A stretch of DNA of 64,000 nucleotides from a plasmid. A program made the position numbers. The stretch lies in assembly GCF_057098645.1 (NCBI RefSeq), contig NZ_JBXSPU010000002.1. One strand, written 5' to 3'. Positions 34,901 through 43,900 of the stretch are shown one piece after another (the stretch's first letter is position 1; every line of letters begins with the position of its first letter).

Positions 34901-37900
34901 AACATGAAACAGCAGATCTGATCTTCGAGGCACTGACTTTCTCCCCAACGCCCGAACTGGAGCTGGCGAAATTTGTCCGTCTCAAATCGGTGCGCCGGAT
35001 TGCACAGTTTGATGACGGGGAAGTACGTTATGGGGTTCACGTGGAACTAGACGAAGCTGTTAATATTAATTCCTTCCGCATTTTTAAGGATGATAATACA
35101 GGCGGGTTTGATTTTTATTTGTTTTCTGTTTTAGGTAATAATGCAGAGCTTGTCCAGATTAATCTGGATGCCAGCAATATTCATTTGCAGGACATTTTTG
35201 AACGGTCTACCGGTTTGTGTTTGTCCTACTGATGAATTTATTAAATATTTCACATCAGGTTGTTAGCCACGAGGCTGAATATGAAATAATAAGAAAAACA
35301 ATGAGGTGAAATATGAAAACTTTAAATATTCAGGTTAATGACATCGCAGCAATTAGCGCACTTGGCGGCTCAATGTTGGCGGATATTATCGCCGCGCAAT
35401 ATAAAGTGATTGATGATACCAAAGACGCATCTGAAATGGCCATGCCGTGCATTGCTTACGGGCAGATCCCCGCAAACATCGGCCCGGGCGTCTTTATCAA
35501 TCGCGTGTACAGCATGGACAGCCAGTCACTGAGTGCCAGCCAGCGTTACGAGCTCTTTAACGGACTTGCAACCCAGGCGTTTACCTTCTTTTTCCAGTCG
35601 GGCTGGTATGGCGCATTCCGTGTTGTGTCTTTCCGTGATAACGGTCCTGCCGGACTCCTTAATATCGGCATTGTCCATGACAAGGTGTTAAACGAATTTT
35701 GCGATGATTTTCCACGGGCTAATGTCAGCGAAACTGGCTTCAACTGCGGCATGACGTTTGACCAGATCCGGATGTTTATTTCGGACCTGGCCTATCAGAT
35801 GCCTTTGTACAACAACCAAGACCACTTCGTTAAACTCGCCAAACACCTCGCGGCCTGACACCCCTAGCCAGGCTCCGGCCTGGCGATTATGAAGGAAATT
35901 CTTATGAGCGATTTATTCAGCAGCGAATCACCGGTAACACTGGCTCAGGCACGCACTGTCGCCGCTGGGTACCAGAACGTCTTTATCGAAAACCTCCAGC
36001 CAGCAGGCCATTTCCAGATTGTCATCCGTGATCATCGCGACCACGACAGCCAGCTGGTCTGGCGAAACTGGAATTATGAATCCGGTGCCAATGATGCGCT
36101 CAATAGCTACCTGCAAAGCCATGGGCTGAAGGCCAGTTGATTAGCACAAGAACCCGGTAACACCGGGTTTCTTTTTTGTGGGCTCAGCACTCAGAGCTGG
36201 CATACGGAAAAAGGATCATTGGGCTGTCCGGGGCCCGCAGCTGGTGGTGTAAGCCTGGCCTCATGCAGATGGTTTAGCCGGGGGCGGTGATGATGCTGGG
36301 AACTAAAAAGAGATCTGGCATCCGGAAAGAAATCTTCGGTACCTCATGGCCTGCGTGGTGGATATGTCTGGCTGACGACTGCGGTGTCGTCTGTGACGGA
36401 CTCGCTCCATAATAATTTGCGGTCGGGAGAAAAGGGGCGTGTTAACAAAATTTAAGAACAAGGGACTTTAATATAAATACCGAGTCCATTAACGATGACG
36501 CACAGGAGTTTTGTGATGTTACTCAATATTGCATTAATCCTCTATGTTGCTGTTTGTCTTTACCTCTGTCTCCGTAATAAAAAGGCACTTTACCGTTTCC
36601 AGGGCGGAGGGCGTCAGTTTACGCAGTCCAGTAAGAGTGGAGCGAACACAGGCGAAAGTGGTTTCTTCTTAATCTCCGGCTACTCAGACACTGGCGTTGG
36701 GGGCGACAGTGGGGACGCTGGTGGCGGATGTGGGGGCGGTGGTGATTGATACAGGGTGCAGGCACCCGATTGTCGGGGGGCTATCGACAGGGGGTAAAGT
36801 TGACGGATTTTTTCGTAATGGTTTTGCGTCCGTGGTTCTGGCTGGTGGATGGTGAAGTCAGAGGATCTGGTTTTAATCAAGACGGATAGAAAGTAACTTT
36901 ACGGAATCTGTCATACGCAACCGGAAAGAAAATCTCACGCAGGGCAGCAAAGGCACGCCAGAGTGGATTTGCAGATTCGGACGGGAAAGCCTATTTTTCA
37001 TGCACTGAACCTATTTGGGCTGGAACGGAACCTGGTATAGTAGACTCATACAAAGGAGGGCATATGAATACTTTTCTTTACGTGCTGGTGGGCTGGATTA
37101 TCGTTCTATATCTGGTTAATAAAGTCCGCGAAAAGTACAGCAAACCGAAAACAGTTAATATCCTAGTGAAACGCAATGGCGTTTATCAAGAAGTGGAAGC
37201 CGTAGTGATGCCTCGAAGCCATAATAGCGATGTGGGTACAGGTAAGACCGGCAATGAAGCCGCCCCACAATGGTTGAATAAAGAGGATGATATTTCTGAA
37301 CTGGAGTACTACAGTGGCGGGTCACTCTTGAAGGCTGCAAGAGATTTTGAAGCTCAACAAATGGAGCAAAAATTCTAGCCACACTATCAGTGTCCACGAT
37401 TGGGAACTGATCGTGAAACCCTTTACTTTCAGATTCAATAAAGTCGGATGCGAGGAGTTGATTAATGACAACGGCAAACGTAACCACCACTATTTACCGT
37501 TCCGATGACATCGTGCCTTTTCGTCGGCCGCAGGGAGATCTGGATAATCGCTATATGCCGCAGGCTTACGCTCTGGTGCGGAGCTGGGCCAGCAAACCTG
37601 CGGAGTACGGTGCAGGAGTTCTGGCTACCTACAGACAGCCGGTAGTCAATCTCGGGTATAAGATAAAAGGGACTCGCGTTGTTTTAATTCTTGTCCCTAT
37701 CGAATGTGAGCCGGTTGGCGTAAAAATGACTGACGCCGCTTTATGGCCGTCTCTATCGATTGGGGAGGCCATGCGAATTATGCAGGAAGCGTGGCAAAAT
37801 ATTCCGGAGTTGAATCCATAAAAAACCCCGCATTTGCAGGGTTTTTTTTTACTTTGCCGATCTGAACATTTTACTCAGTATAAGCCGAGAAAAGCGCAAA

Positions 37901-40900: not shown

Positions 40901-43900
40901 ATTTGATCCGAGAGAGAAACGCCGAATCTTCTATTGTGAGAATGTGACTTAATGTGGTTTCAGGGTGAATGAGCGGCTTGTTGCGTTGCACCTGTTTAAA
41001 CGTGATGCTATTAGGCAGCGTAATAAACGCAGATGCAGCATTTGTAAAATTGACAAAATAAGGCAATAAATAACTCCCCAGCATTTTGGCATTTTTTTCG
41101 ACGAGGCTGCGGCGCTCTTCGGAGTTGTCGAAAGTTATACGAAAGCTATTAAATGTACGTCGACCATTTTCGCTCGCCAGCAGAGACTGGACCCATTCAT
41201 CACATGGGCCTTGTGCTACGGTCCAGTAACTCGTTTCATGGTCACCGTATTCATTGCTGGTGGACAGTTCGCCTTGCAGCAGAAAAAGCTCGGAAAGGAT
41301 GATCGCCATCGCTGATAAAGACTCAGCATCGTTGTCATGGCAAAATTGCCCCACACATTTCAAAGCACCTTTTTCTATCCCCGCCAGTCGGTTACGGACA
41401 TCCTGCGATTCGGTAAACTTCAACCCTAATGATTGCATACGCCGCTTAACGAGCGAGCGGCTTTTACTTACTTTCAGAGATGCACTGAAAATTTGATTTT
41501 GTGTCAGAGTAATTTGCTCATCCATCAATGCAATTTCCTTAGATATTTATTTAAATAGCTTAAACCCACATTCTGGCGCAAAGTTACTTTTCCGGCGGGT
41601 TTCAGGAACATCTCCAGTAACGTCGTATTGGGTTTCATCGCTTTTTCACTTACGGCAATCGGGATCTGCCCGACAACTTTACGACCATCCTGAAGTCTGG
41701 CCACAATATGGAATTTGGGGACCTGGCCCAAAAGCTCTTTTGGAATACTTTCTTCCAGCGTTGTTTGCTTTCTTTCTGATATTGACCCAGAGAAGTTATT
41801 ATGCGGCAAAGTGGTTTCAGATCCTGTCGTATACGTGACCATATTTGTACTAATTGGACTCTTACCAAAGTTTTCTACGACCAGCGTTTGTGTTGGTGTG
41901 TCGTTTACCCGCAGGCTAATGTAGTTGTTACATAGACCTGTAATACGGTTTGCCGTCTCAGCGTTCGCTGCTGCAATAAAGTCGGAAATAGTTTGCGTGC
42001 AGATAAATAATGCAATTTGAGCGGCACGACCCTGTGCGAGTAAGTTTATCATTGAATTGTTTATGGCAGAGTGTGCTTCGTCGACGAAAATACTGATTCT
42101 TGAATGGGAAGACATATCACCATCGTCAGCGTTATAACGACTACCCGCACAAGACGTAAGATCTGACATTATCAACTGCGAAATGGCCCGGGCTGATTCC
42201 GGGTTGGAAAGGCCATCGAGCGAGATATACAGAACTCCGCCGGTACTGAACATCCCATCTGAAGTGACTATTTCACGCGAAGTGAGTGTATTAGGAGACG
42301 GCGAAAGCAATTCATTCAGTGGTTGTTCAGTCAGTCGACTAAATAGCGGCATAATACCCGCCGTCATTTTAGACATGTGTTCAGGATCAGACATGGAGTA
42401 ATCCACTAACCGACCGACGGTATCAATCCATTCAATGGGCTCGGCGCCTTCATAATTAAGAAAATGGGCATTAAACCATTCTGTCAGGCGCTTAAATCGA
42501 ACCTGAAGAGTGTCATTCGAAGCGTATTTCACCTTTTCCATCCAGACATCAGGCCCGTAGTGTCGTGCAAAGCAGCATTCCATTACTTTTATCGTTAGGT
42601 TCACAACAGACATATGGCTTTTCATGTTTTTGTGGATGAGATATATCGACGGTTTTTTATCCGTGTAAGACAGACCAGTGATCACCGTTGAGACGAGAGC
42701 TTCGGCATATTGCACGAATGGGTTAACTTCCCCGGGAACCGAAACCAGACTAAGAAGTCGTGAGGTGAGGTCCGAAACATTTGTGTAAGCATTGCATACA
42801 TCAATACACACCGATGAAGACGGCTGGGCTGGGTGAAATTTATAAAATGGCAACCCCAGTTCTGACGCTTCATCCATCAGTGACTGTCGCCACTCAGCGT
42901 CATTCTTCGGGTCAATAACCACAATGACATGGCCCAAATGCAGCATGCTGATGCTCAGTAAGCGCTGAAGTACCGTTTTACCGGTACCGACGTTTCCGGT
43001 AATGAGGGTATGTCCGAACCAGTTATCTTCGGTCACAAAAATGGGTGCCCGCCGGTCAACAGCAAAGATGGCGTTATTGCCCCCCATGGATCTGGCCATT
43101 GTTTCAAAATGTCGCGCTATAGGGCTTAGAACAAATGGCAGGGCTATCTCTCTTTTGTCACTTGAGAGATTAGCAATTTGATATGCGCGGTCTGCATGCT
43201 CGGGACCCCATTCAAAGCCGTTACAAAAGTAGGTTTTTCTATCCGGTACTGGTCGGTTATTTTTTTTATACTCTTGTACCAGCTGGCGATACTTTCGCTC
43301 GTTCGAGAAAAAGTTACTTTTATTGATCGTCCTGAGCGACTTGAGGCTAATAAACATTATCTGGCGCTGAAATACGCGCCAGTGTGCCATCAAATAGGGG
43401 TGTGCCGTTTTACAACGGTACAAACAAACCAAAAGCAGGAAAACAGCGGTATAAAGAATGATAGGGGCAATATTCACCCCATCTGAACGAAAGCCCATAA
43501 CCAGCATTATGACGGCGCAAATTAAAAGCACTGAGGCACTTCTGTACTCCAGTATCGGCCTGTAAAAGTTTTCCTGAGCGTGCAGGTTGGTTCTTTTTGA
43601 TTTTGTCATTACAGATTCCCGACCTCTTTTAGCTTGTTAATAATTAACTCAATATCGACCTTTGCCCGGTCTGATGCGGCGACCAGAGTTGGTATGTTGA
43701 ATGCAATGCATTTTGTATTGACTACGGCACCGGATGTGACCTGGTACTGAGGAAGTTGGTTAAAAAGCTCAGGCGCATTTAGCTGCGTTCCGTACTTTTC
43801 AATACATGACTGCGTCAGATAAAAGGTGTTCTGGGTCAAAACCATGAACCGGTTTTTCCTCTTTCTTTTGAACGACCCAGATAACTTCGTCAGAATTTGG

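Follow-up and report, generated by a model that had tools for sequence, protein, structure and literature searches.

The four tightly packed genes at positions 37849-41528 of a 64,000-nucleotide plasmid stretch (contig NZ_JBXSPU010000002.1 of NCBI RefSeq assembly GCF_057098645.1; the whole stretch is called the window below) almost certainly make up the 3' half of the DNA-transfer (H) operon on an IncHI1 plasmid of the R27 type. On sequence evidence they are the R27 loci R0118, traJ (R0117), R0116, and R0115. One of them encodes the characterized, essential TraJ/DtrJ, the membrane partner needed by the TraG coupling protein. The other three are uncharacterized and, as judged by substitution patterns and distribution, are retained and constrained by purifying selection like essential genes. 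R0116 is predicted to be a membrane-anchored serine protease of the S49 family and R0115 a nuclease with a NERD domain that is tethered to the inner membrane.

Identity and transcription of the gene block

Over the operon the window differs from R27 (coordinates 98139-108149) by 14 mismatches in 10,011 nucleotides (nt) with no gaps (99.86% identity), and over the four-gene block by 1 mismatch in 3,680 nt. RefSeq features, gene order, and proteins are identical in the two, and the region is matched at 99% identity or more in 216 plasmids. By this comparison R27 itself or an IncHI1 plasmid very close to it is the source of the window, and nothing of substance differs. All four genes have been catalogued since the R27 sequence was published; an earlier note on this DNA, which had drawn attention to them, is correct in its observation, which is not new. 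What we add is evidence on conservation, selection, topology, and active sites, and no new object.

Eight genes are arranged head-to-tail on the minus strand, from 47859 down to 37849 (Table 1). The earlier note had described the last four as packed with overlapping or adjacent start and stop codons, and their open reading frames (ORFs) and junctions bear this out. The junctions of the last six genes amount to +12, +1, -1, -1/-4, and -14 nt. The overlap between the traG stop and the R0118 start is 1 nt if R0118 begins at ATG and 4 nt if it begins at TTG (40422-41528, 368 residues), R0118 and traJ overlap by 14 nt, and the S49 gene R0116 follows traJ after 12 nt and is itself followed by the NERD gene R0115 after 1 nt. 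Hydropathy analysis finds two N-terminal transmembrane (TM) segments in the traG product, none in the 368-residue protein, three to four in the 220-residue TraJ, and one N-terminal hydrophobic segment each in the S49 and NERD proteins, consistent with the membrane anchors that had been proposed for these two. A hairpin located immediately 3' of the last stop codon has a 12-bp stem with flanking A- and U-tracts and a folding free energy of -18.7 kcal/mol (z = -4.9; none of 200 shuffled sequences was as stable), and U-tracts are present on both strands. A scan with consensus promoters and terminators returned matches at or below shuffle expectation and missed this hairpin.

Gibert et al. 2020 (PMC7366339) divide the Tra1 region into R, F, and H operons. 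Their Tables S3/S4 label R0115-R0122 '(H)', with traH given as a relaxosome protein, R0116 as 'peptidase', and R0117 as 'traJ, relaxosome protein'. The eight genes are induced together, 4.7-11-fold, in an htdA mutant (drR27) at 25 °C (traI, 11; traG, 9.2; R0118, 8.6; R0121, 7.7; traJ, 7.3; R0115, 5.6; R0116, 4.7), and R0114, the next gene outside the operon, changes by -1.8 (PMC7366339). Joint derepression without R0114 directly supports read-through from the H promoter up to the terminator. Co-transcription with the relaxase and coupling-protein genes, as claimed in the earlier note, is thus supported by gene packing, the single terminator, and htdA-dependent derepression; the genes are transfer-linked by regulation and are standard, catalogued IncHI genes rather than an anomaly. 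In wild-type R27, array signals for R0115-R0118 are about 700-1,500, compared with about 220-460 for traI/traG, and are equal at 25 and 37 °C (PMC7366339). Because this basal level is higher and temperature-independent, the data suggest a possible additional, constitutive promoter within or just after traG, besides the thermoregulated H promoter; the consensus scan contained nothing convincing for such an internal promoter.

TraJ and R0118

The 220-residue protein matches Pfam PF14348 (DUF4400, now DtrJ-like) with an E value of 2.4e-12 over residues 45-217 and has hydrophobic segments at residues 7-30, 124-145, and 189-210. Its gene is separated only by R0118 from that of the SXT_TraD-type type IV coupling protein (T4CP). 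It aligns with the equivalent protein of a Vibrio MOBH plasmid (26% identity, E value 6e-23), in whose lineage the T4CP gene and traJ are directly adjacent. PMC7434980, citing Gunton et al. 2007, describes TraG-TraJ ('TraG-J') pairs with TraJ as the membrane partner of the T4CP; such pairs and the requirement for TraJ are covered in PMC7434980, PMC10838148, and PMC11493245. The homologue is essential in Rts1, as seen in a traJ deletion, and is called DtrJ in IncC. The polytopic membrane protein of the earlier note is thus the characterized, essential TraJ/DtrJ.

The MOBH systems of IncC, SXT, and Rts1 have the same arrangement of an SXT_TraD-type T4CP followed by a DUF4400 membrane protein of about 220 residues that is required for transfer. 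IncHI plasmids differ in that R0118 is inserted between the T4CP gene and traJ, and S49 and NERD genes follow traJ; neither gene occurs at the post-traJ position in Rts1, SXT, or IncC. R0118 has no match in Pfam, NCBIfam, PADLOC, or PHROGs, the homologues found are all of IncHI type, and an AlphaFold2 (AF2) model (pLDDT 75, pTM 0.79) returned no fold match beyond orthologues.

Conservation and selection within IncHI plasmids

The same eight-gene order is found in an IncHI2 plasmid, IncHI3-type Klebsiella plasmids, a further Enterobacter lineage (L006), a metagenome contig, and two species genomes (GTDB). We compared protein identities between IncHI1 and three of these lineages for five genes and calculated the ratio of nonsynonymous to synonymous substitution (dN/dS, Nei-Gojobori) against a 90%-identical Citrobacter lineage (Table 1). 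Between HI1 and the HI3 type the S49 protein is 47% identical, on par with TraG and TraJ, and R0118 has a dN/dS of 0.088. The catalytic residues of R0116 and R0115 are intact at 30-47% identity. In PLSDB, 1,821 plasmids carry an IncHI-type TraJ, 1,812 a collinear S49-NERD pair (counted at 80% coverage or more of a fused query), and 1,792 R0118. The pair occupies the same place in IncHI1-HI5-type plasmids and is present in about 99% of carriers of an IncHI-type traJ.

By these comparisons the four ORFs are genes and not chance reading frames, because dN/dS is 0.085-0.147 for R0118, R0116, and R0115 and because the block is present in about 1,800 plasmids. The earlier note had considered the S49 and NERD genes unusual for H-type systems, a view that the shared order in IncHI1, HI2, HI3-type, and further IncHI-like lineages contradicts; the S49 gene also occurs in other MOBH plasmids. 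The IncHI comparison that the note had proposed finds all four to be conserved IncHI genes, of which traJ alone is characterized. It is highly improbable that the three uncharacterized genes are passengers with no link to transfer, carried inside an essential operon. Their similar wild-type R27 levels at 25 and 37 °C, which means expression also with conjugation off, would suit passengers. Their dN/dS values, however, are in the range of essential genes, the catalytic residues are intact in the divergent lineages, and of roughly 1,800 plasmids about 98-99% have kept the genes. Loss of R0116 and R0115, which end the operon, would have no polar effects, yet both are retained.

R0116, a predicted S49 protease

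R0116 matches Peptidase_S49 (PF01343) with an E value of 8.8e-31 over residues 188-326. In an alignment with Bacillus subtilis SppA, Ser203 of R0116 falls on the nucleophile Ser147, and Lys255 on SppA position 199 (chain position 144), the general base, which is Ala in the crystallized chains. Ser203, Lys255, and a GGxP motif are invariant in seven plasmid homologues. R0116 scores below the NCBIfam cut-offs of TIGR00706 (121.7 versus 155.45), TIGR00705 (92.2 versus 311.45), and SohB (53.5 versus 259), and by these scores is an S49 family member and not an SppA or SohB orthologue. The Ser-rich insertion seen in the earlier note is real: it contains 13 serines in 58 residues (about residues 130-187) and splits the S49 fold relative to B. 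subtilis SppA. It is present in all IncHI-type S49 proteins, with variable sequence and length; neither B. subtilis SppA nor the homologues from Vibrio and IncC have it. The N terminus consists of a basic tail, a TM segment (residues 36-54), and an acidic stretch. Because this pattern is the same in every homologue, hydropathy and the positive-inside rule predict a periplasmic catalytic domain, as in SppA. R0116 thus shares with the SppA/SohB enzymes (Escherichia coli SppA, B. subtilis SppA) the S49 fold, the Ser/Lys dyad, the N-terminal anchor, and a predicted extracytoplasmic catalytic domain, and differs from them in its sub-cut-off scores, its insertion of about 58 residues, and its location on a plasmid within a DNA-transfer operon.

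S49 genes of this kind accompany other MOBH plasmids. In the 324-kb Vibrio alginolyticus plasmid pVA20-8B-3 (2377-12791), two small genes are followed by genes for a MobH relaxase, TraD, TraJ, S49, the traA pilin, traL, and traE, and the order from the relaxase to traE is the same in Vibrio hepatarius. In this lineage the S49 gene stands exactly between the DNA-transfer and pilus modules, with no NERD gene or R0118. In the IncC plasmid NZ_CP024522.1 (6818-8653), a 319-residue S49 protein, 'sppA', is encoded directly upstream of dsbA, within a long same-strand gene run downstream of repA, and PMC9709138 lists this IncA/C 'sppA' as a core gene. The IncA/C and Vibrio proteins have the family, architecture, and catalytic residues of R0116 at 29-34% identity; they differ in having no insertion and no NERD partner and, in IncA/C, a different locus. 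The S49 gene seems to be an ancient accessory of the MOBH1 backbone, and NERD and R0118 seem to be additions specific to IncHI. Among 100,044 species genomes, the best 80 S49 loci include 77 that lack a MOBH, TraJ, NERD, or R0118 neighbor and are ordinary chromosomal S49 genes.

The position of the Vibrio gene between traJ and the pilin gene traA raises the alternative that R0116 is a dedicated maturation protease with one substrate, either the H-pilin TrhA precursor before cyclization or TraJ, TraG, or another Tra protein, instead of serving general clearance. In deep comparisons R0116 equals TraG and TraJ in conservation, its IncHI-specific insertion suggests a specialized interaction surface, and two peptidases encoded on Rts1 are needed for the mating-pair formation of that plasmid. 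During its maturation the RP4 pilin is cut at the C terminus by a host protease. We nevertheless consider a single dedicated substrate rather improbable, as the IncHI pilin gene resides in the other transfer region (Tra2), the IncA/C S49 gene is beside dsbA and far from traA and traJ, and the sequence of the insertion is poorly conserved.

R0115, a predicted membrane-tethered nuclease

R0115 matches NERD (PF08378) with an E value of 5.3e-23 over residues 33-143 (model positions 3-110 of 111). Asp-71, Glu-84, and Lys-86 are invariant in nine IncHI-type and 82 diverse homologues, the domain has a restriction-endonuclease-like α/β fold, and the AF2 model contains one long N-terminal helix. An acidic N terminus of 6-11 residues precedes a single helix and then a basic stretch, which by the positive-inside rule, applied to five homologues, gives an N-out/C-in orientation. 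Only about eight residues would be periplasmic, and the nuclease domain is predicted to be cytoplasmic, on the same side as the T4CP motor. A basic, strongly amphipathic C-terminal helix of 24 residues (residues 218-241, 37849-37920; hydrophobic moment 0.5-0.6) is confidently modeled and could be located on the membrane surface or contact DNA.

At E values below 1e-10, a profile of the IncHI NERD proteins retrieved over 4,000 small NERD proteins with a membrane anchor. The IncHI clade is set apart (E values below 1e-70 compared with 1e-41 for the next relatives), and no other group was found within a conjugation operon; the sampled TM-NERD relatives are stand-alone genes in unrelated contexts with no S49 neighbor. 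R0115 shares with this family of thousands of proteins (PF08378, about 200-260 residues) the architecture of TM helix, NERD domain, and helical tail and all the family-invariant residues. We know of no small TM-NERD protein with a tested function. One relative (P0065, 213 residues) is encoded by the last gene in a run of short ones on the JGI metagenome contig Ga0256751_1005428 (1130-4169), a run that includes a homologue of Phage_coatGP8, the inovirus major coat protein; a filamentous-phage-like element thus carries the same kind of tethered nuclease. A chromosomal three-gene fragment in Pseudenterobacter timonensis (FCOP01000010.1, 10001-11482) encodes an R0115-like NERD protein (66% identity) next to R0114-like and R0113-like proteins. 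Its S49 side is cut by a filamentous-haemagglutinin/PT-VENN toxin gene, and insertion sequence (IS) fragments are near. We rejected the idea of an autonomous NERD-R0114 module based on this lone NERD gene, as the locus is an R0113-R0114-R0115 fragment of an IncHI-like backbone.

Among known defense systems, a search of PADLOC-DB v2 with the four proteins found only PglW, at E values of 0.001-0.007 on the NERD domain of R0115, and the NCBIfam model for MADS6 scores 37.7 bits on R0115 against a cut-off of 460; the likeness is confined to weak matches with the N-terminal NERD domains of these proteins. Membership of a known defense system was rejected, PADLOC, PHROGs, and NCBIfam giving domain-level matches only (the PglW and MADS6 NERD domains and a phage S49 head protease). 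SNIPE (bioRxiv 10.1101/2025.11.03.685801), a membrane-bound anti-phage nuclease that cuts phage DNA during injection and is toxic once untethered, is the sole mechanistic precedent that we found for the arrangement predicted for R0115. In SNIPE a single N-out TM helix keeps the nuclease at the inner membrane, facing the cytoplasm, and this tether spares the chromosome; the analogy is one of function only. Pfam finds NERD alone in R0115 and no DUF4041 or GIY-YIG domain, so that R0115 is not a member of SNIPE.

The main competing explanation for R0115, possibly together with R0118, is that of a DNA-processing auxiliary of IncHI conjugation. Such a protein would act on plasmid DNA at the TraG-TraJ translocon, trimming or terminating the transferred strand or aiding establishment in the recipient, with an effect too subtle or too host- or temperature-dependent for standard matings. 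R0115 belongs to the relaxase/T4CP operon and shares its regulation, is as frequently retained as traJ, and has its predicted nuclease domain on the side of the T4CP motor; NERD and R0118 are, moreover, both additions to the MOBH module that are specific to IncHI. We regard this explanation as unlikely, since Rts1, SXT, IncC, and Vibrio plasmids transfer without a NERD gene and the relatives of R0115 stand alone with no link to conjugation.

The S49-NERD pair

A search of 72,556 plasmids with the fused protein (tblastn) found no collinear S49-NERD pair outside IncHI-type plasmids, and we rejected the view of the pair as a two-gene module that is mobile elsewhere. Within IncHI the pair is collinear in 1,812 plasmids and was never seen split. 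SppA-type enzymes degrade membrane-embedded signal peptides. Together with the 1-nt spacing of the genes and the toxicity of SNIPE after removal of its anchor, this invites the idea of a coupled module in which the protease cuts the signal-anchor-like helix of R0115 and frees a toxic nuclease as an abortive or killing switch. We hold such a switch to be very unlikely: the catalytic domains are predicted on opposite sides of the membrane, with so little of R0115 exposed to the periplasm, S49 genes occur without NERD in Vibrio and IncA/C, NERD relatives occur without S49, and the pair was found only in IncHI.

Proposed roles

In Lawley et al. 2002, disruption of nine of the 14 Tra1 ORFs reportedly abolished transfer. 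As many Tra1 genes have names (traH, traI, traG, traJ, trhR, trhY, trhF, trhH, and trhG), which presumably leaves R0115, R0116, R0118, and R0121 dispensable; to our knowledge, no transfer defect has been reported for the unnamed Tra1 ORFs. We infer that R0118, R0116, and R0115 serve accessory and not core transfer functions. The explanation set out below has, as a whole, about an even chance of being right, and the roles assigned to the three genes individually are more tentative.

R0116 would be an SppA-like Ser/Lys protease that would remove or trim peptides embedded in the membrane, as well as exported Tra proteins or pilins, while the type IV secretion system and the pilus are being produced. 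This periplasmic clearance role is suggested by the neighbors of the gene (traJ and traA in Vibrio, dsbA in IncA/C) and by the LepB-like peptidase Orf185 encoded on Rts1 and needed there for mating-pair formation, which by analogy sets a precedent for plasmid copies of host envelope proteases within this plasmid group. Host SppA/SohB may be able to replace R0116 in laboratory matings, and such redundancy would explain the absence of a laboratory phenotype. R0115 would be a PD-(D/E)xK nuclease that a single N-out helix tethers to the inner membrane at its cytoplasmic face. The tether would keep it off the nucleoid, so that it acts only on membrane-located nucleic acid, the likeliest target being unwanted DNA on its way into a cell that is piliated and competent for transfer; the spatial logic would be that of SNIPE. 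R0118, soluble and translationally coupled between traG and traJ, would probably bind the TraG-TraJ pair. Protease and nuclease probably act independently, because their catalytic domains are predicted on opposite sides of the membrane and, elsewhere, either type of gene is found without the other.

Several points weigh against these assignments. With scores under the SppA and SohB cut-offs, the substrate range of R0116 need not match that of SppA. The strict co-retention of the S49 and NERD genes in IncHI and their close spacing also fit a functional pair, and DNA of the plasmid itself could equally well be the target of a nuclease whose gene lies in a relaxase operon. SNIPE combines DUF4041 with GIY-YIG and is about twice as long, whereas R0115 is a NERD protein of PD-(D/E)xK type, and R0115 matches no model of a known defense system beyond the weak PglW and MADS6 hits. 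Finally, the dispensability of the three genes is presumed from the number of essential ORFs that Lawley et al. 2002 reportedly gave.

By analogy with SNIPE, R0115, alone or gated by the S49 protease, might more specifically be a plasmid-borne immunity device that cuts the nucleic acid of pilus-dependent phages or rival plasmids at the inner membrane of the piliated IncHI host, a specific form that we consider distinctly unlikely. If true, it would be a second, unrelated case of the spatial principle of self/non-self discrimination in SNIPE and would provide a function for the large small-TM-NERD family. Entry exclusion, proposed as a function in the earlier note, was set aside: in R27 it is assigned to EexA/EexB, which removes the need, and an additional role may remain.

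In Salmonella Typhi much multidrug resistance is carried by IncHI plasmids, which also carry mcr and carbapenemase genes in Enterobacterales, and their DNA-transfer operon contains three uncharacterized genes that are conserved as strictly as essential ones. Should the protease or nuclease influence how efficiently transfer proceeds in natural hosts, how the pilus is built, or how well piliated donors are protected, this would explain part of the success of IncHI plasmids, and the proposed role of R0115, if true, would be the first function for the widespread small membrane-anchored NERD proteins.

Features of the operon and other parts of the window

Table 1. Coordinates of the H operon features in the window, with protein identity (%, HI1 versus HI2/HI3-type/L006 lineage) and dN/dS
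Feature	Position	Strand	Identity	dN/dS	Description
traH (R0122)	47374..47859	-		0.175	MobI-like relaxosome factor, first H-operon gene; length and position as in the R27/pMAK1 gene called MobI(A/C) by RefSeq
R0121	46655..47377	-		0.093	Unnamed 240-residue H-operon ORF; labeled (H) in PMC7366339; kept in all IncHI lineages examined
traI (R0120)	43609..46644	-		0.135	MobH-family relaxase; NCBIfam MobH 241.7 bits versus cut-off 200; ORF extendable to TTG at 46686
traG (R0119)	41525..43609	-	83/47/61	0.064	SXT_TraD-type coupling protein (T4CP); NCBIfam TIGR03743 627 bits versus cut-off 366
R0118	40422..41525	-	66/25/38	0.088	367-residue soluble protein, IncHI-type plasmids only; ATG start at 41525 in RefSeq
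traJ (R0117)	39773..40435	-	82/48/58	0.075	220 residues, DUF4400/DtrJ-like polytopic membrane partner of the T4CP
R0116	38579..39760	-	72/47/53	0.085	393 residues, predicted membrane-anchored S49 (SppA-like) serine protease
R0116 insertion (residues ~130-187)	39200..39373	-			Ser-rich, low complexity
R0116 Ser203 codon	39152..39154	-			Predicted nucleophile
R0116 Lys255 codon	38996..38998	-			Aligned with the SppA general base
R0115	37849..38577	-	63/30/41	0.147	242 residues, predicted membrane-tethered NERD (PD-(D/E)xK-type) nuclease
R0115 D71 ... E84-x-K86 codons	38320..38367	-			Active-site motif
Intrinsic terminator	37822..37850	both			Bidirectional; common to R0115 and convergent R0114; end of the H operon
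R0114	37465..37821	+		0.13	118 residues, convergent to R0115

The assignment of traH is in line with its orthologue in the Enterobacter lineage, which matches the Pfam MobI family. R0114, which uses the same terminator as R0115, has no Pfam or NCBIfam match; it adjoins the NERD gene in IncHI1, HI2, and the HI3 type (35% identity) and in the chromosomal fragment (75%).

Elsewhere the window contains a decayed F-type transfer region (8604-21146, minus strand, GC content about 0.6). Its TraI relaxase/helicase is broken up between two ORFs (12101-13873 and 8604-12104), TraD (13873-15717) has lost its first ~100 residues and abuts an IS3 transposase (15760-16650), and TraG (18987-21146) has lost its first ~180 residues. 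An IS21 transposase is encoded at 22255-23901.

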